From Parcubacteria group bacterium (GTDB lineage: Bacteria; Patescibacteriota; Minisyncoccia; JACPHC01): a DNA stretch of 64,000 nt. Positions 10,181-52,815 of the stretch are shown one piece after another (position 1 is the stretch's first letter; each line of letters opens with the position of its first letter). Below the pieces are notes generated by a model. The model was not told the DNA's origin. It saw only the letters and a list, made by a program, of their open reading frames with translations, and made no database searches. The translations under genes and the position numbers were made by a program. The DNA lies in contig JACPHC010000010.1 in NCBI GenBank assembly GCA_016188775.1, positions 31,333-95,332 of the forward strand. Direction: 5' to 3'.

Positions 10181-10333
10181 TTTCGCTTATAATGATTAAA
10201 GAAGTTATTCTAAAAATTTTTAAGGTCGAGGCGCTTTAATTAAATTATATAATCCGCCGAGGGTGCCTAAAAAATTTTAGAATAACTTCTTGCCATTATT
10301 CCGAAAAATTATTTCGCAAAAAGTTTTATTAAA
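10181..10333. repeat. family A hairpin element copy 1 (A1 subtype) forming the hisS 5' region
   Basis: cgcTTATAATgattaaa + 22-bp arm (gaagttattctaaaaattttta) + conserved core GGTCGAGGCGCTTTAATTAAATTATATAATCCGCCGAGGGTGCC + complementary arm + conserved tail running to the hisS ATG; near-identical copies at 50363-50512 and 52665-52815. Confidence 0.8.
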
Positions 10334-11617
10334 ATGCCTAAAAAAAGACAAAAAGAATTATTTCAGCCGGCCAAAGGAACTTTTGATATTTTGCCGGAAG
10401 ACGAGTGGTATTGGGACAAGATTTATAAAGCCGCGAGCAAAGCGGCCGATGTTTACGGGTTTGGCAAGATAGAGACGCCGATTTTTGAAAATACCAATCT
10501 GTTTTTAAGAAGCGTGGGCGAGACTACCGATATAGCGGAGAAACAAATGTATAGCTTTAAGACCAGAGGCGGGGATGCGCTCACTTTGAGACCGGAAGGA
10601 ACGGCGCCGATTAGCCGGGCTTTTATTTCCAACGGACTTTTTGAATTGCCTCAACCGCTGAAGCTTTGGTATTGGGGTCCCTTTTTTAGGCACGAAAGTC
10701 CGCAGCATTTAAGATACCGGGAGTTTCATCAGTTCGGTTTTGAAATTTTTGGCGACCGGGATTCGGTTTATGACGCTTTAATTATTCAGATTTTTGCCAA
10801 TATTTTAAAGGAACTCGGATGGGCTGATTTTGTCGTGGAGATCAATAGCGTGGGCTGTCAGACTTGCCGGCCGGATTTTCGGCGCCTTCTTTTAAATTAT
10901 TATCGTTCTCGCCAGCGGCTTTTGTGCAAGGACTGCAAAAGGCGGTTTGTTTCCAATCCTTTGCGGCTTTTAGATTGCAAAGAAGAAAAATGCGCCGAGT
11001 TGAAATCGCGCGCGCCGCAAATTATCGATCATCTTTGTTCCGCTTGTCGTCCGCATTTTAAATCCACGCTTGAATTTTTGGATGATCTGGAAATTCCTTA
11101 TATGCTGAATCCGCATCTGGTGCGCGGTTTGGATTATTATTCCAAAACCGTGTTTGAATTTGTTTCAACTTCAAAAGAAGATAAGATGGCTATCGCTTCC
11201 GGCGGGCGTTATGACAATTTGGTGGAATTATTGGGAGGAAAAAGCGCGCCGGCCGTCGGCGGAGCCGCGGGCATTGAACGGCTCATCGCCAGTTTAAAAG
11301 AAATCGGCGTTCAGCCGGAGCCGAAAGAAAATCCGAAAGTTTTTGTGGTTCAGCTCGGTTCTTTAGCCAAAAGAAAATCTCTTTCTTTGATTGAAGATTT
11401 AAGAAAAGCGGAAATCACTTTTGCCGAATCCCTGGGTCGGGATTCCATTAAAGCTCAACTCAAGATTGCTGATCGCCTCAAGGCGCAATTAGCGCTAATT
11501 ATCGGCCAAAAAGAATCTTTGGATAATACGATTATTATTCGAGAGATGGATTCCGGCAATCAGGAAACCGTGACACGAGCGAAAATTATTGATAGATTAA
11601 AAAAGAGATTAAGTTAA
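10334..11617 (+). CDS. hisS: histidyl-tRNA synthetase
   Basis: Class II aaRS motifs (YSFKTRGGDALTLRPEGTAPISRAF; GGRYDNL); anticodon-binding C-terminus; Cys-rich insertion (CQTCRPDF…CKDCKRR…CSACRPHF). Confidence 0.85.
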   Translation: MPKKRQKELFQPAKGTFDILPEDEWYWDKIYKAASKAADVYGFGKIETPIFENTNLFLRSVGETTDIAEKQMYSFKTRGGDALTLRPEGTAPISRAFISNGLFELPQPLKLWYWGPFFRHESPQHLRYREFHQFGFEIFGDRDSVYDALIIQIFANILKELGWADFVVEINSVGCQTCRPDFRRLLLNYYRSRQRLLCKDCKRRFVSNPLRLLDCKEEKCAELKSRAPQIIDHLCSACRPHFKSTLEFLDDLEIPYMLNPHLVRGLDYYSKTVFEFVSTSKEDKMAIASGGRYDNLVELLGGKSAPAVGGAAGIERLIASLKEIGVQPEPKENPKVFVVQLGSLAKRKSLSLIEDLRKAEITFAESLGRDSIKAQLKIADRLKAQLALIIGQKESLDNTIIIREMDSGNQETVTRAKIIDRLKKRLS

Positions 11618-11623
11618 AATTTT

Positions 11624-11992
11624 ATGGCTGTTATTTTCGATCCCAATTGTATTTTTTGTAAAATCGGCAGAAAAGAATTGTCGGCGGATATTTTGTTTGA
11701 AAATGACGCTTATGTCGTTTTTAAAGATATTCAGCCCAAAGCGCCGGTTCATCTTTTAGTGGCGACTAAAAATCATATCAGCTCGATAATGGAAATTCAG
11801 GAAAAGGACAAGGAATTGATCGGCGGTTTGATTTTGCTGGCGAAAAAAATCGCCCAAGATCAGGGAATCGCCGCCAGCGGTTTTAAATTGGTTTTTAATG
11901 TCGGTCGAGGAGGCGGGCAGGTAATCGATCACCTTCACCTTCATCTTTTGGGGGGCTGGGCGGTTCCGGCTCAAAAAAAAGTGGAAGTGTAG
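11624..11992 (+). CDS. HIT-family (histidine triad) hydrolase
   Basis: HLHLHLLGG histidine-triad motif near the C-terminus. Confidence 0.8.
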   Translation: MAVIFDPNCIFCKIGRKELSADILFENDAYVVFKDIQPKAPVHLLVATKNHISSIMEIQEKDKELIGGLILLAKKIAQDQGIAASGFKLVFNVGRGGGQVIDHLHLHLLGGWAVPAQKKVEV

Positions 11993-12022
11993 AAAATTTG
12001 AAAAGAGATAATTTTAAGCATT

Positions 12023-12253
12023 ATGCCAATCATTGTTAGAAAAAGAGAAAAAGAAACCCCCGGCGGTTTAGTTCGACGTTTTACTAAAATAGTCAAACAA
12101 AGCGGCTTTGTTTTGAAGACGAGAAAAAAAAGATTTTATAAAAAACCGCTGACTAAAAAGAAAAAACGGGACGCGGCTCTGGGTCGGGCTAAAACGGCCA
12201 AAGAAATGGAACGGCTGGAAAAATTGGGAAAGAAAAAAGAAACCAAAAGATAG
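12023..12253 (+). CDS. rpsU: ribosomal protein S21
   Basis: MPIIVRKREKE…RRFTKIVKQSG…KKRFYKKPLTKKKKRDAA: S21 pattern. Confidence 0.75.
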   Translation: MPIIVRKREKETPGGLVRRFTKIVKQSGFVLKTRKKRFYKKPLTKKKKRDAALGRAKTAKEMERLEKLGKKKETKR

Positions 12254-12261
12254 TTTTCAAT

Positions 12262-12750
12262 ATGTTAAAAGTTCAGCTTCAAAATGATTTAAAAACCGCC
12301 ATGAAAGCGGTTGATATTTCGCGCCGGACCGTTTTGCAGTCATTGCTGGCCGCGATTCGGAATAAAGAAATAGAAAAACGGAGCCGGATTAAAGAAGTTG
12401 CCGGAAAAAGCGACGAAGAACTTCGAACACTTTCCGAATTAAAAGACGATGAAATTATTTCCGTCATTGCCGCGGAGGTTAAAAAAAGAAAAGACGCTTT
12501 AACGCTTTACGAAAAAAGCGGACGTTTGGATTTAATTGAAAAAGAAAAATCCGAACTGGAAATTTTATCGGCTTATTTGCCCGAACAGCTTTCGGAAGAA
12601 GAAATTAGAATAGAAGTTAAAAAAATTATTGAAACTTTAAAAGCCGGTCCCGGCGATTTCGGCAAAGCAATGAAAGAAGTTTCAGCTCGCCTTAAAGGAA
12701 AAGCCGAGGGCGGCCTAGTCAGTAAAATCGTCAAAGAAATGCTGGGTTAA
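12262..12750 (+). CDS. GatB/YqeY-domain protein
   Basis: N-terminus MLKVQLQNDLKTAMKA…LQSLLAAIRNKEIEK matches the YqeY family. Confidence 0.7.
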   Translation: MLKVQLQNDLKTAMKAVDISRRTVLQSLLAAIRNKEIEKRSRIKEVAGKSDEELRTLSELKDDEIISVIAAEVKKRKDALTLYEKSGRLDLIEKEKSELEILSAYLPEQLSEEEIRIEVKKIIETLKAGPGDFGKAMKEVSARLKGKAEGGLVSKIVKEMLG

Positions 12751-12754
12751 TTTT

Positions 12755-13237
12755 ATGATTGTTCTCGAGATTAATAATTTAACCGCGGTAAAAATTAATA
12801 AAACTCAATTAAAAAAAACCGCTCAAAAAATCATTGGGGCGGTAAGCAAAGAAAAAATCGAATTTAAAAAATTTAAAAAAATTGAAATTAGCTTGGCCTT
12901 TGTCGGCGATTCCCGTATAAAAAAATTAAACAAAATTTGGAGAGGAAAAAATCGGATCACGGATGTTTTATCTTTTGGCGTTGAGGAAATTGAATTTAAA
13001 AACTCGCCGGTTGGCGATGTTTTTATTTCTCCGGATAACGTTAAGAGAATCGGCGAGATTGTTATAGATCCGCATCAGGCGAAAAAACAGGCCAAAAAAT
13101 TTGGCCATAGTCTTGATAAAGAAATTATCCGCCTTTTAGCTCACGGCATCTTGCATCTTTTAGGTTACGATCATGAAAATGATAAAGAAGCCCTTGAAAT
13201 GGAAAGGCTGGAAGAGAAAATTTTAATGGATTTTTAG
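12755..13237 (+). CDS. ybeY: rRNA maturation endoribonuclease YbeY
   Basis: HGILHLLGYDHEND zinc-binding motif. Confidence 0.85.
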   Translation: MIVLEINNLTAVKINKTQLKKTAQKIIGAVSKEKIEFKKFKKIEISLAFVGDSRIKKLNKIWRGKNRITDVLSFGVEEIEFKNSPVGDVFISPDNVKRIGEIVIDPHQAKKQAKKFGHSLDKEIIRLLAHGILHLLGYDHENDKEALEMERLEEKILMDF

Positions 13238-13297
13238 CATTGCAATTGATTTAATTTCCAGTTATTCTATACAATATAGAATAACTTTTTTATTTAT

Positions 13298-14527
13298 ATG
13301 GCGCGGGAAAAAATAATTGTGGGATTGGATATCGGCACTTCAACGATCCAGACGATTGTGGCCAAAAAAAGAAAAGGGACTCGGCCGCAAGTAATCGGAA
13401 TTGGCGAATCGGGCGCCCTGGGAATCAGGCGCGGCGTTGTTGTCAATATCAATGAAGCCATTAAAAGCATTAAAGCGTCGGTTATGCAGGCGGAACGCGC
13501 TTCCGGCGTTCCCGTCTCTCGAGTCTACGTCAGTCTGGGCGGATCTCATATTCAGATCGCTCCTTCCAAAGGAGTGGTGGCGGTTTCTCGGGCCGACGGC
13601 GAAGTGTCGGAAGATGACGTGGATCGAGTGATTCGCGCCGCCGAGTCAATTTCTTTGCCGGCTAATTATGAAATTTTGCATATCATACCGCGCCGTTTTC
13701 GTCTGGACAGCCAAGAAGACATTAAAGATCCCAAAGGCATGACTGGCATTCGGCTTGAAACCGAGGCTTTAGTTGTTGAAGCTTTTACTCCCTCGGTTAA
13801 AAATTTAACCAAGGCCGTGAATGAGGCCGGATTGAAAATAGAAGAGCTGATTTTTTCCAGTTTAGCCGCGGCTGAATCCAGTTTAAGTCAGCAGCAAAAA
13901 GAACTGGGCGTTATCGGCATTGATATCGGCGGCGGCACAACCGGTCTCGTGGTTTACGAAGAAGGAGATCTTTTGCACGCCGGGGTTATTCCCGTTGGAG
14001 GAACGCATTTAACCAATGATGTGGCTATCGGGCTTAGAACTTCCATTGAGACGGCTGAGCGAGTCAAGGTGGCGGCCGGCTACGCGGTGCCGGAAAAAAT
14101 CGGCAAACGCGATTTGATTGATTTAGCTAAATTTTCCAAACACGAAGAAGGCGAGACGCAGAAGCGGTATTTGGCGGAAATCATTGAAGCCCGGCTTTCG
14201 GAAATTTTCGAGCTGGCGAATAAAGAATTAAAAAAGATTAATCGTTTGGGCGAACTGCCCGCCGGAGCGGTTTTGTTGGGCGGCTCGGCTCATTTAAATG
14301 ACATCGCGGAACTCGCTAAAAAACGATTGAAACTGCCGGTAATCACCGGTCGGCCAATAGAACTTGACGGATTAGGCGATCGCCTGTCCAAACCGGAATA
14401 CGCTACGGCTGTTGGTTTGATTTTAATCGCTTCCAAGCACCTTGAGAATGAAGAAAACGGTTTTCCTTTCCGAAAAGCTCCTCCAATCAGCGGATTTTTC
14501 AGATGGCTTAAAAACTTCCTTCCCTAA
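13298..14527 (+). CDS. ftsA: cell division protein FtsA
   Basis: Actin-fold N-terminus IVGLDIGTSTIQTIVA; GIDIGGGTT; ftsZ downstream. Confidence 0.85.
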   Translation: MAREKIIVGLDIGTSTIQTIVAKKRKGTRPQVIGIGESGALGIRRGVVVNINEAIKSIKASVMQAERASGVPVSRVYVSLGGSHIQIAPSKGVVAVSRADGEVSEDDVDRVIRAAESISLPANYEILHIIPRRFRLDSQEDIKDPKGMTGIRLETEALVVEAFTPSVKNLTKAVNEAGLKIEELIFSSLAAAESSLSQQQKELGVIGIDIGGGTTGLVVYEEGDLLHAGVIPVGGTHLTNDVAIGLRTSIETAERVKVAAGYAVPEKIGKRDLIDLAKFSKHEEGETQKRYLAEIIEARLSEIFELANKELKKINRLGELPAGAVLLGGSAHLNDIAELAKKRLKLPVITGRPIELDGLGDRLSKPEYATAVGLILIASKHLENEENGFPFRKAPPISGFFRWLKNFLP

Positions 14528-14572
14528 ATTAATTTTTTGTGCTAAGATTGTTTCGTCCAGAAAAAAATAAAA

Positions 14573-15055
14573 ATGAAGAAAACAAAAATAATAACGGACA
14601 AGAAAGATATTGAAAAACTTCTCGTAAAACAGACTGCGGTAATTTTAAACGCGGTTGATGAGAAAATTTCAAAGCTTGACAAGTCAGTTGATGAGAAAAT
14701 TTCAAAGCTTGACAAGTCAGTTGATGAGAAAATTTCAAAGCTTGACAAGTCAGTTGATGAGAAAATTTCAAAGCTTGACAAGTCAGTTGATGAGAAAATT
14801 TCAAAGCTTGACAAGTCAGTTGATGAGAAAATTTCAAGACTTAGTTTGGAAATAATTAAAAGAGAAGCCCATATGGACGCGCGACTTGGAAAGCTTGAAG
14901 AAAGATTGACTAAAAAAATCGATCAGCTTACTACGGCATTAGATAAGTTTCTCACCCGTCTTACTGGACTCGAGCAAGAATTTATATTTATGAAGGAAGA
15001 TATAAAAAGAATAAAATCAATTTTAAAAGAGAAAATTGGAGTCGATTTAACTTAG
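14573..15055 (+). CDS. hypothetical coiled-coil protein with 11-residue tandem repeats (VDEKISKLDKS x5, then a diverged copy), lying between ftsA and ftsZ
   Basis: 160-aa ORF; five perfect 33-bp DNA repeats encode a perfect hendecad repeat; C-terminal heptad-like region (LGKLEERLTKKIDQLTTALDKFLTRLTGLEQE). Confidence 0.55.
   Translation: MKKTKIITDKKDIEKLLVKQTAVILNAVDEKISKLDKSVDEKISKLDKSVDEKISKLDKSVDEKISKLDKSVDEKISKLDKSVDEKISRLSLEIIKREAHMDARLGKLEERLTKKIDQLTTALDKFLTRLTGLEQEFIFMKEDIKRIKSILKEKIGVDLT
14654..14851 (+). repeat. 33-bp direct tandem repeat, 5 perfect units plus 1 diverged unit
   Basis: gttgatgagaaaatttcaaagcttgacaagtca repeated head-to-tail with no spacers, so not CRISPR; lies inside the 14573..15055 CDS. 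Confidence 0.95.
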
Positions 15056-15070
15056 GCTTATTTAATTATG

Positions 15071-15210
15071 CCCAGTAGTGAAATTTCGATAGATTTTTTT
15101 TCTGTCATTTGATTATCACTCTCTACTTGGCAAAATATATTTATTATTAACAATTCCGACTTCTTGTCTTAAGAAATCTTAATGACAGAATCGAAATTCT
15201 ACTACTGGGT
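15071..15210. repeat. family B ~140-bp inverted-repeat element copy 1, ending exactly at the ftsZ ATG
   Basis: cccagtagtgaaatttcgat…atcgaaattctactactggg terminal inverted repeats plus inner tctgtcat/atgacaga pairing; ~93% identical copy at 51255-51394. Confidence 0.8.
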
Positions 15211-16374: not shown

Positions 16375-16445
16375 AAAAAGCTCGACTTATCCCCAGAAGA
16401 ACGCCTTGACGGCGTTTTTTGTTCGTCTAAAATAAAGATACTTAT

Positions 16446-18815: not shown

Positions 18816-18916
18816 AAAGCCGGTCTAATCCGGCGGTCGTAAACTTTTTGGGTGTTTTTACTCTTTGGAGTATTGATCCTGAAAAAGGATGAAGGCCGCC
18901 GGATTAGACCGGCTTT
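18816..18916. other. long hairpin (23-bp stem, ~55-nt loop with an inner hairpin) downstream of the RNR gene
   Basis: aaagccggtctaatccggcggtc … ggccgccggattagaccggcttt, nearly perfect complement; possible terminator or sRNA. Confidence 0.5.
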
Positions 18917-19781: not shown

Positions 19782-21206
19782 TTGTCTAATATGTCTAAAT
19801 CTCGGATTTTTTTAATTTGGCTTCTTTGTTTTATTGCCGGAATTTTTTTCGCTTCTTATATCAGTTGGCCGAAATTATTTTTAATATTTTTATCCATTGT
19901 CTCTTCGGCGGTTATTCTGGTTTTTAGAAAAGAAAAAATTATTTTTATTTTTGCGGGCGGAATTTTGATTTTTAGCCTCGGATTTTTAAGAATCGCGGGA
20001 ATCGCGGAGAAAAAATCGACGCTTGATCAATATTTAGATAAAAAAATTATTAGCCGAGGAATAGTAATGGCCGAGCCAAAAACAAAAGGAGAATCAACCA
20101 GTTTTCTTTTGGAAATTAGGGGAGAAAAAATTCAAATCAGAACCCGAAATTATCCGATTATCAATTATGGCGACGAATTAGAAGTTCAGGGCCAGCTTAA
20201 ATCGGTTCAAAATTCCGCTATCCGCTACGCTCTCAATTGGCCCAAAATTGAAATTCAAAAAAAAGATCAAGGGAATTTTTTCAAATCCAGTCTTTTTAAA
20301 TTAAAAGAAAAATTCAGCCAAAATATTTCTCAAAATATGCCCGAACCCGAAGCCTCGCTGCTGGCCGGCTATATTTTCGGCTCCCGAAATCTTCCTTCGG
20401 ATGTCGAGCAAAATTTTAAAACCCTCGGCCTTTCCCATATCGTCGCGGTTTCCGGTTTTAATTTAAGCGTTATCGCGCTTTTTATCAGTCAAATTTTTAC
20501 TTATTTTAATTGGCCTCGTTTTTTGAAATTTTGGAGCGCCGTTTCCATTATTTTTCTTTTTGTTTTAATGATCGGTTTTCCGTCTTCGGCCATGCGGGCC
20601 GCGATTATGGCTATTTTAGTTTTAGTGGCGGAAAAAGAAGGCCGCTTGTACGAATCCGCTCATGCCATAATTTTTGCCGGCGCTCTGATGCTTTTATTGG
20701 ATCCTTTAATTTTGCGTTTTGACCTGGGGTTTTCTTTGTCGTTCTTAGCGACTTTGGGGCTGATTTTTCTCTCGCCGATTTTACCGAAATATCTGCCTCA
20801 ACTCGTTTCCCAGACTTTGGCCGCCCAAATTTTTGTTTTACCGGTTCTGCTTTTAAATTTCGGCGTCGTCTCTCCCTACAGTTTATTGGTTAATTTTTTG
20901 ATTTTGCCCTTGGTGCCTCTGGCCATGCTTTTAGGATTTTTAGCCGGCCTGACTGGTTTTATTTTTCAAATTTTGGCCGAAATTATCAGTTGGCTGGCTT
21001 GGCCGATTTTATTTTATCAAATTAAAATCGCTCAATTTTTTTCTTTTTTCCCTTACGCCAAGATTAATTTCGGAAAAATCAGTTTGATTTTCGCCTTTAT
21101 TTATTACGCGGCGATTGGATTTATTATTTTTAAAAATAGAAATAAAGTACCCACTTCCACTTGCGGCGCTGATGTTTTGTTGGGGCATAATAAGCAGGTA
21201 TCCTAA
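19782..21206 (+). CDS. comEC: ComEC/Rec2 DNA-uptake channel, membrane part (DUF4131 + competence domain)
   Basis: Polytopic membrane protein; competence-domain motif LSHIVAVSGFNLSVIALF; the stop codon lies inside a family A repeat. Confidence 0.75.
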   Translation: MSNMSKSRIFLIWLLCFIAGIFFASYISWPKLFLIFLSIVSSAVILVFRKEKIIFIFAGGILIFSLGFLRIAGIAEKKSTLDQYLDKKIISRGIVMAEPKTKGESTSFLLEIRGEKIQIRTRNYPIINYGDELEVQGQLKSVQNSAIRYALNWPKIEIQKKDQGNFFKSSLFKLKEKFSQNISQNMPEPEASLLAGYIFGSRNLPSDVEQNFKTLGLSHIVAVSGFNLSVIALFISQIFTYFNWPRFLKFWSAVSIIFLFVLMIGFPSSAMRAAIMAILVLVAEKEGRLYESAHAIIFAGALMLLLDPLILRFDLGFSLSFLATLGLIFLSPILPKYLPQLVSQTLAAQIFVLPVLLLNFGVVSPYSLLVNFLILPLVPLAMLLGFLAGLTGFIFQILAEIISWLAWPILFYQIKIAQFFSFFPYAKINFGKISLIFAFIYYAAIGFIIFKNRNKVPTSTCGADVLLGHNKQVS

Positions 21207-21280
21207 AAAATTTTTGAGGTCGAGGCTCTTTAATGAAATTATATAATCCGCCGAGGGGACCTAAAAATTTTTAGGATACC
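21197..21280. repeat. family A hairpin element copy 2 (A2 subtype)
   Basis: gtatcctaaaaaattttt-GAGGTCGAGGCTCTTTAATGAAATTATATAATCCGCCGAGGGGACC-taaaaatttttaggatac; arms differ from A1 copies but remain mutually complementary. Confidence 0.8.
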
Positions 21281-21362
21281 TACGAAATTAGAAAAGATAA
21301 AGGCGATTTAAAAAATCTATTTCCGAAGCCTTGCTATAAAGTATTCGGCGAATACGTAAAAA

Positions 21363-26992: not shown

Positions 26993-27348
26993 TGGTCGCG
27001 ATTACTGAACGAAGCTCGAACCTTTTTCGAGCGAAAATCGCTCGAATGATTTGAAACCCCACCCCAGCGTTTCCGCCCGCCGAAACTCGGCGAGCAAAGC
27101 AAAACAATTTTCTTTTCAATTCTTTAATTTTTCGCGCGACCTTTTTTCTTTTAAAAGGAATTGAAAATTGTTTTGCTTTGATGTCTTGATACCAAGACGG
27201 CGGAAACTCTTCCCACCCCATTGCGCTTACGGCGCAGAACAGGCGGGCAAAAATTCCTTCCCCCCAACCCCCTTCCTTTTTGCCCGCCCGCTGGAAACTC
27301 CCAGCGGATTTTTCGGGCGGCGGGCCCTCAAATTGAGTGGTGGGTGGA

Positions 27349-28791
27349 TTATGTTGATTTTGGGATTAGGTTTTCCGCAACTTTCCTGCCAAGATATGAT
27401 AGCATTTTTCCTTCCTCTTCAAAACTTGTAGCGTCTGCCCAGATTAAATTCGCAATTTTTTGTCCCACCACGACTTCCCACGGTTTTGCGCTACCTATTA
27501 TGCCCATTAGATCATTTCGTACTTCTTTAATATCGTAATTTTTTCTATTGTACCCATCTTCTTTAAATCCGTTCATTACGAAAAAATGCGCATGTTGTGA
27601 ATTTGCTTTAAGCCAAGTTTCAATTCGTTGTTTTAATTCATCCCAAGTAACACTTAACGCCTCCAGAACATCATCAGAGAGCAAAAGATTTTCAGCGTTT
27701 CTACAAGATAATTTCATTCTGACTATCGGCAATAAATCGTCAATTGTTTCCTCGCCATCATCCCTATCTCTCAAAGAGTATCCTTTGGCGTTATCGTAAA
27801 CGGTCTGAACAATCTTTTGCGTCTCTTGTTCAAAGTCATTTATGTTACTAACACTATCAACCGAACAAGGGTATATCTTGATTTTGCCGCCGGCTGACCG
27901 GACAGCTTGTTGCCAAATTCGTTCGTCGTCTTCACCCTCAACTAATAAAATTGGAGCTTCATTAAAGAAATTTGATAGTGGATGCGCTCCAAACACCGGC
28001 AAAACTTTTTTATAAACTTCCGAGATAACTTTAAAATCTAATTCTTTTTGGTCATATACCATAAATGCCAAATGTGTATCGGCGTAGGATTCTAAGGCTC
28101 CCAAAATGGCGGTGCTATGAGTAGCAATTACTACTTGAAAGTTATTTTCAGCAACCAATCCTTTCAAGAAGTGCATCAACCGTACCTGTAAATCTGGGTG
28201 CAAATGCACGTCCGGCTCATCAAGAAATAAGATATTTCCTTTATCCGCCAAACATTCTTTACCAAAGATCAGGCACTCAATTCCCAAAGAAATAAGCTCA
28301 CTTTCGCCACTACTAATTGCGTTCGCGTCTAATTTATTCGTTGTTCCTTTTCGATATATCTCAAATGTCGTTTCGTGTCTTTTTATTTCGATATTGTCCA
28401 GCAAAGAGTTAATTTTATTGACGTAGATATCAAAGGTATAATCATTTTGTTGTCTTTTCTCTTTTTCAATTTCTCTCAAAACCAAGGTCTCAAGTTTACG
28501 ATATTGAGCAACGCTTTGCTGCCTAAATCCTGTTGCCTGATTTCGTCTTCTTTGGCCCGAAAGCCAATTTATATCATTTGTCAGACTTTGTTCAACCCCA
28601 GCCTCATAAATTAGCGCACCGCCTCTTTCCGGTGTGATATATTTCGTTTTGTCATAAGTTCCAGTTTGTGAGGAAAGACCTTGCTCAACCAGCCGAAGCA
28701 TTGTGCTCTTACCAGAGCCGTTCTTACCCAAAACGATATTTATTTTGTTTATGTTTTTTAGCGTATAACCGCTAACATTTGAAATATCCAT
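27349..28791 (-). CDS. OLD-family (overcoming lysogenization defect) nuclease: ABC-type ATPase + Toprim
   Basis: Walker A GKNGSGKST; Walker B/H-loop ILFLDEPDVHLHP; C-terminal Toprim-like LLVEGEDDERI … RDRDDGEE. Confidence 0.65.
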   Translation of the reverse strand: MDISNVSGYTLKNINKINIVLGKNGSGKSTMLRLVEQGLSSQTGTYDKTKYITPERGGALIYEAGVEQSLTNDINWLSGQRRRNQATGFRQQSVAQYRKLETLVLREIEKEKRQQNDYTFDIYVNKINSLLDNIEIKRHETTFEIYRKGTTNKLDANAISSGESELISLGIECLIFGKECLADKGNILFLDEPDVHLHPDLQVRLMHFLKGLVAENNFQVVIATHSTAILGALESYADTHLAFMVYDQKELDFKVISEVYKKVLPVFGAHPLSNFFNEAPILLVEGEDDERIWQQAVRSAGGKIKIYPCSVDSVSNINDFEQETQKIVQTVYDNAKGYSLRDRDDGEETIDDLLPIVRMKLSCRNAENLLLSDDVLEALSVTWDELKQRIETWLKANSQHAHFFVMNGFKEDGYNRKNYDIKEVRNDLMGIIGSAKPWEVVVGQKIANLIWADATSFEEEGKMLSYLGRKVAENLIPKST

Positions 28792-28793
28792 AG

Positions 28794-29249
28794 TTATTTA
28801 ATAGCTTTAAGAATCTTATCAGTAACGATTTTGCTTTCAGACTTTATCTGATGCTCCCAAAATCGCAATACGATCCAACCATTTTTTCGCAGATAAGTCG
28901 TAGTTTTTCTGTCTCGTTTGCGATTGTTTTCTATCTTTTCCCGCCAAAAATCGTTCTTTAGCAAATGCTTCCAGCGTGGGCAATACCAACCGTGCCAGAA
29001 ATTACTATCAAGAAAAATACATACCTTATCTTTTTGAAAAACTATATCTGGTTTTCCCTTGATTGACACAACATTCGCTTGGAATTTTTTGTGAGTAGCT
29101 TTCCCCAAAGAAACTATGAATTCTCGCTCGAATTTTGTGTCTCTGGAACGGATTTTTGCCATTAATTCCGACCGCTTTTTTGTCGGGAGTAAGTCGTCGC
29201 TCCGTTCTTTTTTGAAGTTTCTATTTAGATAGTTTTTCGTCTTTTTCAT
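28794..29249 (-). CDS. vsr: very short patch repair endonuclease
   Basis: DTKFEREF…DIVFQKDKVCIFLDSNFWHGW: Vsr signature. Confidence 0.85.
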   Translation of the reverse strand: MKKTKNYLNRNFKKERSDDLLPTKKRSELMAKIRSRDTKFEREFIVSLGKATHKKFQANVVSIKGKPDIVFQKDKVCIFLDSNFWHGWYCPRWKHLLKNDFWREKIENNRKRDRKTTTYLRKNGWIVLRFWEHQIKSESKIVTDKILKAIK

Positions 29250-30286
29250 AGAAGTCCAGCGTCAAAAATATCGGAAGCTTTGACGCCGGACTTAACGAGG
29301 GAAAATTTATCGTTCAAGAGTTTTTTCCACTGCTTCAAGCGATCACTTTCCAATTTTTCGCTTCTCCAATAGTAAGCGATGGTTTTGGCGTCCATCTCCT
29401 TGATTTTTCTTTCAATCGCTTTCGCTCTAACTTGCAAGCGATAAGCCAGTTGTGGCACTACGACATTTTTGCCTTTCACTTTTAATTTAATTTGACCGCC
29501 AGCCGTGAACAAATCTCGCAAGTTTGCGGATACGGCGTTGTATTCGGCGATAAGATAGGCGGCCGCACGCTCAAACTTTGTCGAGCTGTTACCAAACATT
29601 TCAGGAAACAGAATCATCGCTTCAACCACGAAATTTTCTTTTTCTTTGTCGCTCAAACCTCTGAAAGGCTTAATGATAGGACTAACCGCTTTTCCGTCTC
29701 CGTCTTGATCTATCCACCACAATTCCTCACCCTCTTTTAGTTGTGAGCGATAATAATCCTTGATTTTTTGAATTGGGTTAGTGTCATTCCGTAGCGTGTC
29801 ATAATCAATTCCAATCTTATCGAAAATTGATTTACCTGAAGGCAAATCCATGTTTATTCGATAGCGGGGAGAATGGGTAACGCTAATTTCTGGCAGACAT
29901 TCTTGGTAGAGTCGGTAGCGAACATCCAACTCACCGCCGAATTTTCCAAATACGATATAAATTCTTTCAACATCTTCAATACGTGAAGATTCAAGAACGC
30001 TGTTTCCGGTTGATGTCCAATGATCGTTCGCCGTCATTTTAACTTCAACGCCAAAGTATTTGTTGGCGATGATGTCTGGAAAAGCGTGCGTTCCCGTTTG
30101 TTTAACTGTTCCTTCGAAAGTCGTGCCTTTCGCCGCTTCACGAATTTGCTCAAAAACTATCGTTTCAAAATAAGTCGGCGAGATATTTTTCTTGCCACTC
30201 AAAAAGACCAGCATTAACCCCCTTGATTTTTCAAGCAAGGCGATAAAGTCTTTTTCTTTGGCGTTGGGTTTCGCGACGTAAATCAT
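29246..30286 (-). CDS. type II restriction endonuclease candidate (PD-(D/E)xK)
   Basis: FPDIIANKYFGVEVKM contains PD…(E)VK; flanked by dcm upstream and vsr downstream with 4-bp overlaps. Confidence 0.5.
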   Translation of the reverse strand: MIYVAKPNAKEKDFIALLEKSRGLMLVFLSGKKNISPTYFETIVFEQIREAAKGTTFEGTVKQTGTHAFPDIIANKYFGVEVKMTANDHWTSTGNSVLESSRIEDVERIYIVFGKFGGELDVRYRLYQECLPEISVTHSPRYRINMDLPSGKSIFDKIGIDYDTLRNDTNPIQKIKDYYRSQLKEGEELWWIDQDGDGKAVSPIIKPFRGLSDKEKENFVVEAMILFPEMFGNSSTKFERAAAYLIAEYNAVSANLRDLFTAGGQIKLKVKGKNVVVPQLAYRLQVRAKAIERKIKEMDAKTIAYYWRSEKLESDRLKQWKKLLNDKFSLVKSGVKASDIFDAGLL

Positions 30287-30288
30287 AG

Positions 30289-31260
30289 TTATTTCAAATT
30301 TTTATCTAAAAACTTTTCAATCGCCGTGGCGACATGCCAAGCTAAAACAGGCGGCACGGCGTTGCCAATCTGCTTATAAGCCGAGGAAGTGGACGGATAA
30401 AACACAAAATCGTCTGGAAAAGATTGAATCCGTGCCGCCTCTCTCGCCGACAATCTCCTTTTTCCGTTCCAATGATACTCTATGTTTCCGTGGTGTTCCG
30501 TTCGCATTGTTGGCCCCGGCTTATCCGCCGAGACGACCGAATTCCCTTGCCCGTTATTCTTTTTTGCCTTTGACCAGTAGTGATTGGCGATATTCCCTTC
30601 CTCCGCTTTCTCTAAATCGCCAATTGCTTGTTTTAAGCTAACCCAGCTTTTTTCGTCCAAAATCGGTTTTGGATGTTCAAAAGGAGGAAGTTTGTCTTTT
30701 CTTGTTCCAACAATAATAACTCTCTCTCGTGTTTGCGGCACTCCGTAATCAGCGGCCGTGAGTAATTTATAAACGACATGGTATCCCAATTTTTCAAAAT
30801 CCTTAATAATCGTTTGTATCGCTTCACCGCCGTTCATTGTGAGAAGTCCTCGGACATTTTCAGCGACAAATAAAACAGGTTTAGTTCTCTTGATAACTTC
30901 CGCCATGCTTTGATAAAGCAATCCTCGTTTACTATTAAATCCTTTTCTCTTTCCGGCATGGCTAAAATCTTGACAAGGAAAGCCGCCAAGCACTATATCC
31001 ACTTTTTGCGGGATTGGTTTTTCAAAAAAGCCCGAATTGTGTTTGCCGTCAAGAATTTTTCCGATATCGCCGCAAACTATATCGTGCTTAAAGTATTTTC
31101 TAAAGGTGGCACAGGCGGCCTCGTCAATATCGTTCGCCCAAGCAATCTCAAAGTTTCTTTTCGCGTATTTTTTGCCTAAAAATTCAAAATCGCCGACGAA
31201 GCCAAGATCGAGGCCACCGCAGCCCGCAAAAAGTGAAATTATGGAAAATTGTTTCTTCAT
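30289..31260 (-). CDS. dcm: DNA (cytosine-5)-methyltransferase
   Basis: Motif I FAGCGGLDLGF; motif IV GFPCQDFS; motif VI ENVRGL. Confidence 0.9.
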   Translation of the reverse strand: MKKQFSIISLFAGCGGLDLGFVGDFEFLGKKYAKRNFEIAWANDIDEAACATFRKYFKHDIVCGDIGKILDGKHNSGFFEKPIPQKVDIVLGGFPCQDFSHAGKRKGFNSKRGLLYQSMAEVIKRTKPVLFVAENVRGLLTMNGGEAIQTIIKDFEKLGYHVVYKLLTAADYGVPQTRERVIIVGTRKDKLPPFEHPKPILDEKSWVSLKQAIGDLEKAEEGNIANHYWSKAKKNNGQGNSVVSADKPGPTMRTEHHGNIEYHWNGKRRLSAREAARIQSFPDDFVFYPSTSSAYKQIGNAVPPVLAWHVATAIEKFLDKNLK

Positions 31261-31520: not shown

Positions 31521-31594
31521 TGGTCGGACCACCCGGAATCGAACCGGGGCTATACCCACCCCAAGGGTACGGACTGCCACTATCCGATGGTCCG
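31521..31594 (-). tRNA. tRNA-Pro (anticodon GGG), CCA encoded
   Basis: Folds by hand into a cloverleaf: acceptor CGGACCA/TGGTCCG, D-loop AGTGGCA, anticodon stem TACCC/GGGTA with loop TTGGGGT, T-arm CCCGG-TTCGATT-CCGGG, 3' ACCA. Confidence 0.8.
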
Positions 31595-31874: not shown

Positions 31875-31991
31875 AATTATTCACCCGCCAAAATTTCTAT
31901 GAAATTTAGGCGGAAAAATTTAAGTCTAAAAAGAAGGATAAACTATTTTTTATTTTTTTGCAAACTCGCAGTGAAACCGCGAAGAGTATAA

Positions 31992-32814: not shown

Positions 32815-32914
32815 CCCAGCACATAATTTTACATTCATTCCGTATATTATAAAAAGTTTTTTCGCTATTATACTTATATTTATAATAACGACTATTGTAA
32901 AGTTATGTGCTGGG
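32815..32914. repeat. family D inverted-repeat element copy 1 upstream of rpsL
   Basis: cccagcacataa … ttatgtgctggg perfect 12-bp arms around ~75 nt; second copy at 42153-42258. Confidence 0.7.
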
Positions 32915-42096: not shown

Positions 42097-42152
42097 AGGC
42101 TTGACCTAAAAATTCGAGCCGAAGACGAAGAATTTTTAGCTGTCAAACTTTA

Positions 42153-42258
42153 CCCAGCACATAAATTTATGAAAATATCTTTAAACAAAAATCAATCACT
42201 GGAACCAATAAATTTTATTTTATTAAACGGTCGTCGGGTTGAATTTATGCGCCGGGTG
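42153..42258. repeat. family D inverted-repeat element copy 2 in the S3-L16 spacer
   Basis: cccagcacataaattt … aatttatgcgccgggt (arms with 2 mismatches) around ~75 nt; the interior is unrelated to copy 1. Confidence 0.65.
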
Positions 42259-42278
42259 CTTAATTAGAACACATTAGC

Positions 42279-42686: not shown

Positions 42687-42710
42687 AATTATGATAAATA
42701 TGATAAATAA

Positions 42711-42791
42711 GTATCCTAAAAATTTTTGAGGTCGAGGCACTTTAATGAAATTATATAATCTGCCGAGGGTACCTAAAAATTTTTAGGATAC
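42711..42791. repeat. family A hairpin element copy 3 (A2 subtype) in the L16-L29 spacer
   Basis: gtatcctaaaaatttttGAGGTCGAGGCACTTTAATGAAATTATATAATCTGCCGAGGGTACCtaaaaatttttaggatac. Confidence 0.8.
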
Positions 42792-42803
42792 TTATTAAAC
42801 ATT

Positions 42804-44620: not shown

Positions 44621-44631
44621 TCCCGTTAGAA

Positions 44632-44714
44632 ATTAAAAAGGCAAAATCAATGTTTTATAGCATAAAAAAGTCAAATAATAATTATAATAATCTTGTTAGA
44701 AATTTTCTAACGGG
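44632..44714. repeat. family E inverted-repeat element copy 1 in the S14-S8 spacer
   Basis: cccgttagaaatt … aattttctaacggg 12-bp arms around ~57 nt; second copy at 56016-56080. Confidence 0.65.
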
Positions 44715-44729
44715 ACTATTCCTAACGAG

Positions 44730-46026: not shown

Positions 46027-46036
46027 GACCTTTTAT

Positions 46037-46552: not shown

Positions 46553-46710
46553 TAACCTTTTCTACTCCAATGATAATTTTTCGGCTACAAACAACTCACC
46601 GCTCGTCAATGAATACGTTGCGTTCACTTCCTCGCGTTTCGTTGTTTTCGCTCGAAAAATTATCATTTCGCTACGAAAAATTATTAAGCAGTGGGTCTAA
46701 ATAAAAACAT

Positions 46711-48969: not shown

Positions 48970-49702
48970 AAAATTAAGAGAAGCCGGCGGTATTTTAGCC
49001 GTGATTTTAAACGATGTCGCTAAGAAAGTTGTTCCCGGCATCTCGACTTTTGAACTTGATCAATACGCCGAAGAAGCTATTTTAAAATCCGGCAGTCAGC
49101 CGTCTTTTAAGGGTTATCGTCCGTGGGGCGTGGCAACGGCTTATCCGGCCAGTCTTTGCGTTTCCGTAAACGATACGGTTGTTCACGGATTGCCTTCTCA
49201 AAGACGCTTGAAAGAGGGAGAGATTATTAGTCTTGATTTAGGCTTGGAATGGCAAGGGCTTTTCGTGGACGCGGCCTTGACCGTTTCGGTCGGAATTCCC
49301 TTGCCGGAAATAAAGAGATTTTTGGAAATTACAAAACATTCTCTTGACATTGGCGTTGAAAAAGCGAGAGTCGGCAATCATATCGGCGATATCGGAGCCG
49401 CTATTGCCGATTACGCGGAAAAAGCGGGTTATTCAATAATTCGCGAACTGGTCGGACACGGCGTGGGAGAAGCGGTGCACGAGCCGCCGCAAATCCCGAA
49501 TTTTGGCCGGCCCGGCTCCGGCCCTTTGATCTTGGAAGGCATGGTTCTGGCCATTGAACCGATGGTCAGTCTTGGAAAATTTGACGTGATTTTAGCCGAT
49601 GACGGCTGGAGCTGGAAAACTAAAGACGGCAGTTTGGCGGCTCATTTTGAGCATACGATTTTGGTGACTAAAGAAGGGCCGGAGATTCTAACTAAAATCT
49701 AA
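48941..49702 (+). CDS. map: methionine aminopeptidase type I
   Basis: …VVHGLPS…DLGLEWQGLFVDAA…ELVGHGVGEAVHEPP…. Confidence 0.9.
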   Translation: MIARSENEIKKLREAGGILAVILNDVAKKVVPGISTFELDQYAEEAILKSGSQPSFKGYRPWGVATAYPASLCVSVNDTVVHGLPSQRRLKEGEIISLDLGLEWQGLFVDAALTVSVGIPLPEIKRFLEITKHSLDIGVEKARVGNHIGDIGAAIADYAEKAGYSIIRELVGHGVGEAVHEPPQIPNFGRPGSGPLILEGMVLAIEPMVSLGKFDVILADDGWSWKTKDGSLAAHFEHTILVTKEGPEILTKI

Positions 49703-49716
49703 TTTGTAAAATTTTA

Positions 49717-49906
49717 CAGCGTTGTTTACATTATCCTGCAGGTAATGAGCGCGAAAACACGCTATCAAATTTCCCAGCGAGAAATTTTCGCTTGTTTTCG
49801 GGCTCGCTCGTCTCCCTGCGGGAGACACCTGCCCGCTCGCCTTGCGAGACAGCTTTCTTAGCTCATTACCTGCAGGATACAATACATAAAAGTGTAAACA
49901 ACGCTC
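49717..49906. other. ~190-bp structured element with long two-part terminal inverted repeat and GC-rich hairpin interior
   Basis: cagcgttgtttaca…ttatcctgcaggtaatgagc at the left pairs with gctcattacctgcaggatac…tgtaaacaacgctc at the right; inner hairpins tctccctgcgggaga and gcgagaaattttcgc. Confidence 0.55.
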
Positions 49907-49928
49907 GGAATTCTTAAATCTAATTATT

Positions 49929-50312
49929 ATGCGTTATCTTGGTGTTGATTTTGGGACGAAAAAAATCGGTCTGGCTATTTCCGACGAGAAAGGCCAGATG
50001 GCTTTTCCGCTTCAGACGATCCTTTATAAAAGCGATCGTTTTGTTTTCGCTCGGCTTAAAGAAATTGTTGAAAAAAATCAAATTGAGCGGATTGTGGCCG
50101 GATTACCCGTCAGCATTCAAAAAACTCAAACGGATATTTCAAAGAAAGTTGAAAGATTCGCTCAAAAACTTTCCCAATCGACTGATCTTTCCGTTGATTT
50201 TGAACGGGAATTTATGACTACTAAAATCGCCAAAATCAGTTCGTCTAAAAAAATTGACGAAGCCTCGGCGGCCTTGATTCTCCAAAGTTATTTGGACAGA
50301 AAGAATCGTTAA
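49929..50312 (+). CDS. ruvX: Holliday junction resolvase-like YqgF/RuvX
   Basis: MRYLGVDFGTKKIGLAISDE. Confidence 0.85.
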   Translation: MRYLGVDFGTKKIGLAISDEKGQMAFPLQTILYKSDRFVFARLKEIVEKNQIERIVAGLPVSIQKTQTDISKKVERFAQKLSQSTDLSVDFEREFMTTKIAKISSSKKIDEASAALILQSYLDRKNR

Positions 50313-50362
50313 GGTATAATAATATTATAGACTTCTTGCGAAATAATTTTTTAAAAATCCAT

Positions 50363-50512
50363 TTCCTTCGCTTATAATGATTAAAGAAGTTATTCTAAAA
50401 ATTTTTAAGGTCGAGGCGCTTTAATTAAATTATATAATCCGCCGAGGGTGCCTAAAAAATTTTAGAATAACTTCTTGTTATTATTCTGAAAAATTATTTC
50501 GCAAAAAGTCTT
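50363..50512. repeat. family A hairpin element copy 4 (A1 subtype) forming the 5' region of the GT2 gene
   Basis: Same TTATAAT + arm + core + arm + conserved tail as copy 1; ends at the ATG of the 50513 gene. Confidence 0.85.
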
Positions 50513-51262
50513 ATGAAACCATATTTATCAATTATTATTCCGGCTTATTACGAAGAGCATCGGATTGAAAAAACGCTTCGCGAGTCGGATAAATATCTGC
50601 GATCTCAAAAATACGATTACGAAATTTTAGTCGTTAACGACGGTTCAAAAGACAAAACCGCTGATGTCGTGAAAAGGCTTGTTTCGGAAATCGCGAATTT
50701 AAGATTGATTGACAATAAAATCAATCAAGGCAAGGGTAGCGTGGTTAGGCAAGGAATGCTGGAGGCTCAAGGCCAGTTTCGGCTTTTTATGGACGCGGAT
50801 AATTCAGTTTCTTTAGATCAGGTCGCGAATTTTTTTCCTCGTCTTTGCGGCGCCAAAAACGCCGGTTCGGAATGTTTTGATATTGTTATTGGCTCGATTG
50901 AGGTGGAGGGCGCTAAAATCGAAGAGCAGTCCCAGTGGTATCGGAGAGCTTTGGGGAGATTTTCCAAATATTTAATCAGATTGATTTCCGGCCTTCGGGA
51001 GATTCACGATTCCCAGCGGGGTTTTAAAATTTTTTCGGAAAAGGCCGCTTTGCGAATATTTCCCAAACAGACAATCGCGCGCTGGGGTTTTGATATTGAA
51101 ATTTTGCTTATTGCCAAGCGTCAAGGATTTAAAATCAAAGAGGTGCCGGTGGTTTGGATTAATCCGCCGGAATCCAAAGTGACTTTAAAGGCTTATATTA
51201 AAACTTTCGGCGAGCTTTTGAAAATCAAATGGAATGATATAAGAGGAAGATATGCCCAGTAG
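50513..51262 (+). CDS. family 2 glycosyltransferase (dolichyl/polyprenyl-phosphate glycosyltransferase-like)
   Basis: LSIIIPAYYEE…VVNDGSKDKT…DAD: GT-A fold motifs. Confidence 0.8.
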   Translation: MKPYLSIIIPAYYEEHRIEKTLRESDKYLRSQKYDYEILVVNDGSKDKTADVVKRLVSEIANLRLIDNKINQGKGSVVRQGMLEAQGQFRLFMDADNSVSLDQVANFFPRLCGAKNAGSECFDIVIGSIEVEGAKIEEQSQWYRRALGRFSKYLIRLISGLREIHDSQRGFKIFSEKAALRIFPKQTIARWGFDIEILLIAKRQGFKIKEVPVVWINPPESKVTLKAYIKTFGELLKIKWNDIRGRYAQ

Positions 51263-51394
51263 TGAAATTTCGATAGATTTCTTTTCTGTCATCTGATTAT
51301 TACTCTCTACTTGGCAAAGTATATTTATTATTAACAATTCCGACTTCTTGTCTTAAGAAATCTTAATGACAGAATCGAAATTCTACTACTGAGT
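51255..51394. repeat. family B inverted-repeat element copy 2, ending at the galT ATG
   Basis: cccagtagtgaaatttcgat … atcgaaattctactactgagt. Confidence 0.8.
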
Positions 51395-52411
51395 ATGTCC
51401 GGTAAAAATCAAATTCAAAAATCCGTTTCCGAATTACGGCAAGATTTGGTTTCCGGCGATTGGGTGGTTATTGCCACCGGTCGGGCCAAAAGGCCGAATT
51501 TTTTTAAAGAAAAAAAGATTATGCCGGATCAACCGGTCCAAGCTTGCCCTTTTGAAAATCCGCAAAAATCAACTCACGGCGACCCTTTCTATGTTAGTCC
51601 GAATTTAAAAAATTGGTGGGTGCAGGTGGTTGGCAATAAATATCCGGCTTTTGGCCCGGGCAATTGCCTTATTTTGACTAAAAACGGGCCGTATTCTCAA
51701 ATAGACGGAGCCGGTTTTCACGAATTAGTGATTACTCGCGATCACAAAAGAAGCATTGCCGAAATGTCGGCTAAAGAAGTGGAAGCGATAATTTTAGCCT
51801 ATAAAAATCGTTATTCAGAACATTCCAAAAGCGAATGCGTGGAATATATTTCTATTTTTCACAATCACGGCCCGGCGGCCGGCGCTTCCATTTCCCATCC
51901 CCATTCGCAAATTATCGCTATTCCGGTCGTGCCGCCTGACGTGGGTCGGTCATTGAACGGTTCGGCCGATTATTTTAAAAAAAATAAAAAGCGCGTTCAT
52001 GACGTGATGCTGGATTTTGAAATGAAAGAGCAAACGAGAATCGTTTACGAAAATAAAGATTTTGTTTCGCTTTGCCCTTTTGTTTCCCGCTCCATTTTTG
52101 AAGTTCGGATTTTTCCCAAAAAACACAATCCTTATTTTGAAGATATAAAAACCGAAGAAGTTAAAACTTTAGCCGATATTTTACAAAAAACGCTAAGCAA
52201 GATTTTTAAGGGATTAAATAATCCTTCTTATAATTTTTTTATTCATACCAGTCCGACCAAGGATCGGGAATTTTACGATCATTATCATTGGCATATTGAA
52301 ATTTTGCCTCGGGCTTCGGTTTGGGGCGGAGTGGAGTTGGGCATTGGCATTGAAATTTTAACCGTTTTGCCCGAAGACGCGGCCGAATACTTGCGCGGCA
52401 TAAAAATATAG
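51395..52411 (+). CDS. galT: galactose-1-phosphate uridylyltransferase family (HIT superfamily)
   Basis: …CPFENPQ…ISHPHSQIIAIPVVP: HxHxQ nucleotidyl-transfer motif. Confidence 0.7.
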   Translation: MSGKNQIQKSVSELRQDLVSGDWVVIATGRAKRPNFFKEKKIMPDQPVQACPFENPQKSTHGDPFYVSPNLKNWWVQVVGNKYPAFGPGNCLILTKNGPYSQIDGAGFHELVITRDHKRSIAEMSAKEVEAIILAYKNRYSEHSKSECVEYISIFHNHGPAAGASISHPHSQIIAIPVVPPDVGRSLNGSADYFKKNKKRVHDVMLDFEMKEQTRIVYENKDFVSLCPFVSRSIFEVRIFPKKHNPYFEDIKTEEVKTLADILQKTLSKIFKGLNNPSYNFFIHTSPTKDREFYDHYHWHIEILPRASVWGGVELGIGIEILTVLPEDAAEYLRGIKI

Positions 52412-52502
52412 ACTTTTTTCAAAATAATTTTTCAGAAATAAATCGCTTCGGAAACGGATTTTTAAAATCGCCATAGCCATGAGATCGTACAAAAATTCAA
52501 TC

Positions 52503-52638
52503 ATTTGTCATTGCGAGAAGCGAAGAGACGAAGCAATCTCATTTGTCATTGCGAGGAGGAATGAAGCGACGAAGCAATCTCTAAAATCAGCCAAGAAATG
52601 AGATTTCTTCGGCGATTCCATCGCCTCGCAATGACGAT
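52503..52638. repeat. family F: two direct ~40-bp repeats (TTTGTCATTGCGAG…GCGAAGCAATCTC) plus an inverted partial copy
   Basis: Units 52503-52540 and 52541-52581 abut; cctcgcaatgacgat at 52624-52638 is the reverse complement of the unit start; a related unit lies at 18768-18808; no spacers, so not CRISPR. Confidence 0.7.
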
Positions 52639-52664
52639 TGTTTCGCAATATTTTAAAAATCTAT

Positions 52665-52815
52665 TTCCTTCGCTTATAATGATTAAAGAGATTATTCTAA
52701 AAATTTTTAAGGTCGAGGCTCTTTAATTAAATTATATAATCCGCCGAGGGTACCTGAAAAATTTTAGAATAACTTCTTGTTATTATTTCGAAAAATTATT
52801 TCGCAAAAAAGTTTT
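52665..52815. repeat. family A hairpin element copy 5 (A1 subtype) forming the tpiA 5' region
   Basis: Same architecture as copies 1 and 4; ends at the ATG at 52816. Confidence 0.85.

Follow-up and report, generated by a model that had tools for sequence, protein, structure and literature searches.

The question raised by this locus is why one hairpin-forming sequence recurs between the tightly packed genes of an uncultured Parcubacteria group bacterium, and whether it is to be regarded as an RNA structure or as a mobile element. The stretch analysed (the window) comprises 64,000 nucleotides of contig JACPHC010000010.1 (assembly GCA_016188775.1, positions 31,333 to 95,332 of the forward strand), and the repeat, termed family A, is present in five copies, c1 to c5, of subtypes A1 (c1, c4 and c5) and A2 (c2 and c3). 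An earlier note on this DNA had left both options standing, a selected RNA hairpin or a MITE (miniature inverted-repeat transposable element). The second is favoured by clean empty sites in related genomes, terminal inverted repeats and a target duplication of the sequence TAT. Family A is accordingly considered, with a probability of about 0.82, to be a lineage-specific, non-coding MITE of this genome, inserted between packed genes. MITEs are non-autonomous class II elements with terminal inverted repeats and a target duplication, which occur in several copies and leave empty sites to be found (PMC11602168; reviewed in PMC3184786 and PMC10969869).

Terminal repeats, target site and empty sites

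The three A1 copies were found by local BLAST and an inverted-repeat search to belong to a larger element with terminal inverted repeats of 28–32 bp (consensus AGACTTYTTGCGAAATAATTTTT...), and a scan of the window located this motif nowhere but at these element ends. The outer inverted repeat of c4 (50329-50356 and 50484-50511) extends over 28 nt with 89% complementarity, and that of c5 (52412-52441 and 52783-52812) over 20–30 nt with 73–90%; TAT is present on each side of these two complete copies. The outer repeat had been overlooked earlier, so that c4 and c5 were taken to begin at 50363 and 52665 instead of 50329 and 52410. The inverted arms then proposed as possible MITE termini do exist, but in A1 they are internal and the outer repeat forms the true ends. 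Likewise, the 40-nt tail described as running to the A1 start codons is indeed conserved, and its identity is that of the right terminal repeat of the element. The greater length of c5 is due to an extra internal segment of ~210 bp. Copy c1 is 96% identical to c4 over 155 nt, with the homology beginning at 10179, two bases past the stop codon of the peptidase gene; on its 3' side TAT is followed by TAAA and then by the hisS ATG at 10334, and the terminal-repeat scan detected its right terminal repeat but not the left one.

The contact between the element and its neighbours is precise to the base. The start codon of the GT2 gene is composed of the right-hand TAT of c4 and the following G, and the tpiA start codon is kept in the same manner by the right-hand TAT of c5 plus G. 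At the other end of c5 the left TAT, read on into the two leading bases of the element (AG), yields a new TAG stop for the GalT-like gene, the protein of which ends in KI and has the same length as in the relative described below. The genes on both sides of all five junctions had been called correctly, as confirmed by Pfam (S26 peptidase and hisS, ComEC and MBL, L16 and L29, RuvX and GT2, GalT-like and TIM).

The comparison with related genomes suggested in the earlier note yielded clean empty sites. A 5.8-kb contig of one relative (L065) was found to be fully syntenic (RuvX-GT2-GalT-TIM-PGK-hypothetical), with proteins 64–77% identical to those of the window. Its RuvX-GT2 spacer measures 16 nt, against 200 nt in the window, where it holds c4; its GalT-TIM spacer measures −4 nt (7 nt in a further relative, L066), against 404 nt in the window, where it holds c5; and its GT2-GalT spacer measures −8 nt, against 132 nt in the window, where it holds an element of a second family, family B. 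With the element in parentheses, the c4 site reads ...TATAAATAT-TAT-GAAACCG in the relative and ...AATAATAT-TAT(AGACTT...AAGTCT)TAT-GAAACCA in the window, and the c5 site reads GAAGA-TAT-GAAACT in the relative and AAAAA-TAT(AGACTTTTTT...AAAAAAGTTT)TAT-GAAAAAA in the window. The empty sites carry a single TAT, the stop TGA and the start ATG at the GalT-TIM junction of the relative overlap, and excision of the element together with one TAT regains the relative's junction, ...ATATTATGAAACC..., for both c4 and c5. RuvX and GalT have C-termini of the same length as their counterparts in L065, and GT2 has one residue more. It is shown by these alignments that the element lands at TAT between genes and leaves the reading frames of both neighbours intact. 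According to the junctions and to covariance-model searches, family A is absent from the relatives at four of the five sites, the hisS site (c1) being the one without a comparison.

The complete copies also agree with the general description of MITEs. Their sizes (183 and 405 bp) fall within the range of ~50–800 bp, all six frames across the family A copies are interrupted by stops, the terminal inverted repeats of c4 and c5 compare with a usual minimum of 10–15 bp, and the 3-bp duplication of TAT at both compares with the usual 2–10 bp. Five copies in 64 kb, lacking at four of the five sites in relatives, represent the multi-copy character and the presence/absence variation between related genomes.

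The unrelated family B behaves alike. TATG stands on each side of both of its copies, one of which is placed exactly at the ftsZ start codon and the other exactly at that of the GalT-like gene, and its empty site was also recovered, as GT2 and GalT overlap by 8 nt in L065. The copy at 51255-51393 provides the stop codon of GT2, with the one additional residue noted above. Transposition at start codons is therefore regarded as active in this genome. The coordinates of both families are collected in Table 1.

Table 1. Coordinates of family A and family B elements and of their parts in the window.
Feature	Position	Strand	Description
c1	10179-10327	+	A1, left-truncated; between S26 signal peptidase gene and hisS
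c1, TATAAT	10188-10193		−10-like
c1, inner hairpin	10199-10291
c1, right terminal repeat	ends ~10327
Family B, first copy	15071-15209		139 bp; second MITE family; before ftsZ; 20-bp terminal repeats CCCAGTAGTGAAATTTCGAT
c2	21196-21281	+	A2, solo hairpin; between comEC and MBL gene
c3	42706-42796	+	A2, solo hairpin; rplP-rpmC junction, ends 7 nt before rpmC ATG
c4	50329-50511	+	A1, long form, 183 bp; between ruvX and GT2 gene
c4, flanking TAT	50326-50328 and 50512-50514
c4, promoter-like TTTAAA-17-TATAAT	50350-50378	+	toward downstream gene; 10/12 matches in consensus scan
c4, inner family A hairpin	50384-50476	+	24-bp arms; core 50409-50447
Family B, second copy	51255-51393		139 bp; before GalT-like gene; 20-bp terminal repeats CCCAGTAGTGAAATTTCGAT
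c5	52410-52814	+	A1, long form, 405 bp; fills galT-like-tpiA junction
c5, terminal repeats	left ~52410-52441, right ~52783-52814		TAT-flanked
c5, additional internal segment	~52434-52646		~210 bp, palindromic; includes hairpin 52522-52618
c5, promoter-like TTTAAA-17-TATAAT	52652-52680		10/12 matches in consensus scan
c5, inner family A hairpin	52686-52778

The inner hairpin and its solo copies

The 39-nt core of family A, GGTCGAGGCNCTTTAATNAAATTATATAATCNGCCGAGG, was found at 10224, 21218, 42730, 50409 and 52711, always on the + strand, whereas 100 shuffles gave no match. A covariance model made from the five copies and run on the window recovered exactly these five, with 91–118 bits on the + strand and 33–51 bits on the − strand, and the next-best matches (at most 25 bits) were generic hairpins. 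The repeat as such, as first described, is thus real. Each core is flanked by complementary arms of 19–24 bp, in which 97.6% of the alignment cells are standard pairs, compared with 35–55% in a control with the partner slid by 1–3 columns. Both sides are altered in six pairs; examples are TTATTC/GAATAA in A1 versus GTATCC/GGATAC in A2, a change from G:C to A:T between c2 and c3, and a change from G:C to A:U in the inner GGCN/NGCC stem. The covariation of the arms within copies, another part of the original description, is therefore real, but alone it is no proof of selection at the RNA level, and it can arise without selection, for instance by mismatch correction within a palindrome. Folding, which had been proposed as a check, gave stable structures for all five copies on the + strand, with free energies of −22 to −33 kcal/mol and z-scores between −2.8 and −7.1, and stability is similar on the − strand. 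The proposed Rfam search gave no support: no Rfam 15 model reached its gathering threshold in the window, and relaxing the E-value brought up only microRNA models of the generic long-hairpin type, far under threshold.

These data bear directly on the alternative that family A is a cis-acting RNA module selected by the host, such as a stabiliser of the 5' terminus, a site of RNase III processing or a leader bound by a protein, and spread by duplication for the benefit of the genes behind it, with mobility incidental. The stem is kept by compensatory changes, all five copies are co-oriented with transcription, and the stem alignment contains six G-U cells when read on the + strand versus two potential ones on the − strand. 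Moreover, c3 is certainly transcribed, being inside a ribosomal protein operon, and a symmetric tandem G-A motif (CGAG/CGAG), adjoined by a GGCG/CGCC stem, is present in the core, as seen in both the sequence and the fold. Against such a module stand the near-equal folding of both strands, the explanation of arm covariation without selection given above, the lack of an Rfam match, the functionally unrelated downstream genes and the small material of five sequences in two subtypes. Most directly, it is absent at the orthologous junctions of every relative examined (four sites), and these tight or overlapping junctions clearly manage without such an RNA. This alternative is considered unlikely. 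Two narrower interpretations of the hairpin were rejected on inspection: a K-turn, because the polarity is not that of the standard form, with the 3-nt bulge situated 3' of the GA on its strand, and an integron attC-like site, because the R'' and R' boxes are misplaced.

A second alternative takes the arms as DNA sites for a protein, each arm containing a 14–16-bp palindrome, CCTAAAAATTTTTAGG, so that paired operators for a dimeric regulator or nucleoid protein would surround an AT-rich core with TATAAT. It is true that sites resembling CTAAAAATTTTTAG number 13 in the window compared with 3.5 expected, 10 of them being the arms of the five copies, and that the TATAAT in the core is perfect. 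The palindromic part is, however, just A5T5, which is self-complementary by composition, while the flanking arm bases are true covarying inverted repeats; the promoter scan found no −35 partner for the core TATAAT, the sites are lacking in relatives and there is no candidate regulator. This explanation is regarded as very improbable. The same low standing is given to intrinsic terminators or attenuators between genes, for which the long stable stems (−22 to −33 kcal/mol), the intergenic position and a moderately U-rich stretch, CUUCUUGUUAUUAUU, after the A1 copies could be cited. A terminator scan had no match at any of the five copies, AU-rich stems of 19–24 bp with a 45-nt apical region are unlike intrinsic terminators, termination at c3 within the ribosomal protein operon would be harmful, and these genes overlap in relatives; a terminating role is hence hardly credible.

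The two A2 copies are hairpins without the outer repeats, with arms of 19–22 bp. They are also taken as insertions, because the spacers in relatives measure 9 nt and 0 nt. Copy c3 lies, as had been reported, in the rplP-rpmC junction of the ribosomal operon (L16 and L29 by Pfam). This junction has no spacer (0 nt) in L067, a relative at 70% identity, and contains 83 nt of unrelated sequence in L058, a relative at 86%. Copy c2 lies inside ~290 nt of window-specific sequence (~21075-21362), for which an inverted-repeat search gave no division into units, and the comEC-MBL spacer of the nearest relative (L063; MBL 66%, ComEC 63% identical) is 9 nt long. The c2 flank at 21302-21329 is homologous to an internal module of c5 in inverted orientation. 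On account of this match, the solo copies may derive from larger elements, as remnants or rearranged parts, rather than being independent transposons.

The effect of c2 on comEC was also reconsidered. The stop codon of comEC does lie inside c2, as stated in the earlier note (TAA at 21204-21206, in the left arm). Relative to its nearest homologue, ComEC has a C-terminal extension of 44 residues (21072-21206); GGA stands in place of the ancestral TGA, so the frame continues into c2. The further claim that c2 separates ComEC from its MBL domain did not hold. All 120 Patescibacteria ComEC homologues listed consist of ~390–560 residues with the DUF4131 and Competence domains only and no fused MBL, so that separate genes are ancestral and no splitting by the element took place. 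The splitting of a fused comEC was ruled out by these domains together with the 9-nt spacing of the two genes in L063 and the fact that excision of c2 restores no single frame.

Promoter-like sites, distribution and objections

The consensus scan that detected the promoter-like sites of c4 and c5 (Table 1) found no −35 at c1 and no match at c2 and c3. In c4 the −10 ends ~6 nt ahead of the base of the inner hairpin. According to these sequences, the supply of a promoter and a leader to the downstream gene, which had been proposed for all A1 copies, is possible for c4 and c5 only. In folding predictions of read-through RNA, the leader (−25 to −1) is paired to 0.93 in c4 and 0.85 in c5; in RNA from the internal start, which begins with the family A hairpin, these values are 0.41 and 0.60. 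Shine-Dalgarno motifs were found within 30 nt upstream of only 3 of 70 genes across the whole window, and (TGG)TATAAT stands 5–8 nt before the ATG in several genes (parB at 324, an open reading frame (ORF) at 61442 and GT2 before the insertion). A native TGGACA-16-TATAAT lies immediately to the left of c4. Because of the few Shine-Dalgarno sites and the TATAAT so close to the ATG, many mRNAs are probably leaderless or short-leadered.

For the MITE as preferred here, the following course of events is proposed. A trans-acting transposase of the DDE type would recognise the 28–32-bp termini and make a 3-bp staggered cut at TAT, with the family A hairpin as an internal module of the mobile unit, occurring alone at two more junctions. 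The element would land in, or be retained only within, the gaps of a few bases that separate packed genes. In the two insertions exactly at T/ATG, the right copy of the duplication would keep the downstream start codon and the right terminal repeat would become the new AU-rich leader of the downstream gene, tolerated because the organism hardly uses Shine-Dalgarno sites. Such an insertion would destroy no ribosome-binding site, placing 183–405 nt of structured RNA before the gene. If the internal TTTAAA-17-TATAAT acted as a promoter, transcripts would start at the base of the hairpin and the leader would be left unpaired; in read-through transcripts the left and right termini would pair into a long duplex that might occlude the start region or undergo cleavage by RNase III.

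A bolder version of this proposal is put forward tentatively, and as rather doubtful: family A could be a portable promoter-leader cassette for a genome of leaderless, Shine-Dalgarno-free genes, which targets T/ATG and brings along a promoter with transcripts that start in a 5' hairpin, a leader, and a stop for the upstream gene. The covarying family A module would then serve as the protective 5' hairpin and the right terminal repeat as the unstructured AU-rich leader. If this were true, insertion into overlapping operon genes would be near-neutral or would rewire their expression, and the hairpin core would be under selection at the level of RNA or protein binding and would not be junk.

Family A was without a match in 185,579 species genomes (GTDB), JGI metagenomes, IMG/VR, phages and plasmids. 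Relaxed core patterns searched against IMG/VR, GTDB and JGI gave only chance or coding matches (GC-rich phages and gammaproteobacteria), and BLAST against phages and plasmids gave none. Such wide absence is as expected for a young, lineage-specific repeat. The nearest relatives are distant in a search of 5.8 billion proteins (identities of 86% for ribosomal protein L16, 63–65% for TIM and 62% for ComEC), and their sequences are short Logan contigs (SRR22387819 and SRR22387820). By contrast, these three proteins match those of an NCBI MAG named 'Parcubacteria group bacterium' with 100% identity. Logan contigs of the same organism (SRR12113419-24) break in family A, two starting inside it (L031 and L032) and two ending inside it (L062 and L064), because the repeat interrupts k-mer assembly.

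Several observations weigh against the interpretation as a MITE. Only c4 and c5 carry both termini, and a comparison of the flanks of the solo hairpins c2 and c3 gave no convincing target duplication. A scan of 29 window ORFs revealed neither a transposase domain nor an autonomous partner sharing the terminal repeats of family A. The promoter-like sites are matches to a consensus alone, which is not evidence of function. All five copies are co-oriented with the flanking genes, for which the random expectation is ~3%, a hint of selection or of strand bias. Finally, arms that covary around a near-invariant core are atypical for terminal repeats recognised by DDE enzymes, although the support for arms having diverged more than the core is weak (Fisher p 0.03–0.7).

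Other repeats of the window and known families

Hairpin elements of several families together occupy ~3% of the window. The rpsC-rplP spacer (42097-42278) measures 182 nt in the ribosomal operon, compared with 3 nt in two relatives, and contains a small hairpin at 42106-42139 as well as, at 42153-42256, an element of ~100 nt with CCCAGCACATAA arms, which also surround a 100-nt element at 32815-32914, upstream of rpsL. Hairpins with TCCCGTTAGAAA arms lie at 44621-44715 and 56015-56080, and such an arm is also present at the contig end of the relative L058 (1887-1935), directly after rpmC, where the window genes overlap without a spacer. This family appears to be common to both genomes at different sites. 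Single-copy intergenic hairpins with arms of 13–21 bp and centres of 33–69 nt were located at 18816-18916, 27095-27180, 46569-46667 and 49747-49805. Two pairs of near-identical perfect palindromes were also observed, TTCACCCGCCAAAATTTC...GAAATTTAGGCGGGTGAA at 5599-5637 and 31885-31913, immediately 5' of two − strand genes, topA and an ORF of 82 residues, and TTTCACTACAATGACCTCACG/CGTGAGGTCATTGTAGTGAA in two spacers (6823-6864 and 61307-61350); both pairs could be operators or terminators.

Among the genes of the window, a restriction-modification-like island (27349-31260, − strand) encodes an AAA ATPase, a Vsr endonuclease, a 346-residue protein without a Pfam match and a C5 cytosine methyltransferase, and adjoins a tRNA-Pro (GGG) gene (31521-31594). 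A 160-residue ORF contains a 33-nt coding tandem repeat in six units (14621-14875), and a 648-residue Cys-rich protein without a Pfam match (61791-63737) is encoded with diverged repeats of ~160 nt. The genes parA and parB are situated at the left window edge (1-1232; L059).

Like bacterial MITEs, family A is small, non-coding, multi-copy and intergenic, with 28–32-bp terminal repeats, a 3-bp duplication and presence/absence variation. It differs from typical MITEs in a second, internal long hairpin with a near-invariant core, which is also found alone, in insertion sites that coincide exactly with start codons, where genes are packed or overlap, in a genome barely using Shine-Dalgarno sites, and in that no cognate transposase or parent insertion sequence was found among the window ORFs scanned. 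REP sequences are GC-rich hairpins of 20–40 nt, without terminal repeats or target duplications, that are moved by a Y1 transposase (RAYT). Unlike these, family A has AU-rich stems and a clear signature of terminal repeats and duplication, and no RAYT was found among the same 29 ORFs. With REP/BIME, ERIC, RUP and BOX it nevertheless shares the character of intergenic palindromes, mosaic or nested and present inside operons; those repeats can affect mRNA stability (PMC3184786, PMC3049150).

The Correia elements of Neisseria (CREE/NEMIS; PMC2649163) resemble family A on paper in the combination of an inverted repeat with a directional conserved core of ~100–155 bp, often 5' of genes, in the ability to carry or create promoter sequences and in a long hairpin that, once transcribed, would offer RNase III a substrate. 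For CREE, cleavage by RNase III, binding of IHF and activity as a promoter have been demonstrated (PMC2649163), and by analogy the duplexes of family A may be cut by RNase III. The two differ in phylum, the duplication here is TAT and there is no sequence similarity, so that the resemblance is functional only; a query for the Correia terminal repeat gave 0 matches at up to 3 mismatches.

What is new is this family, in a streamlined genome and with a nested hairpin module; the kind of element, a MITE, is already known. Genomes of the Candidate Phyla Radiation are considered small and streamlined, and a literature search yielded no account of MITEs in these bacteria. In the window, hairpin elements wedge apart genes that overlap in relatives, even within a ribosomal protein operon, and such repeats cause breaks when these genomes are assembled from short reads. 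The start-codon-precise, frame-preserving insertions show how a Shine-Dalgarno-free genome can tolerate them, and they represent natural test cases for translation start in these organisms.

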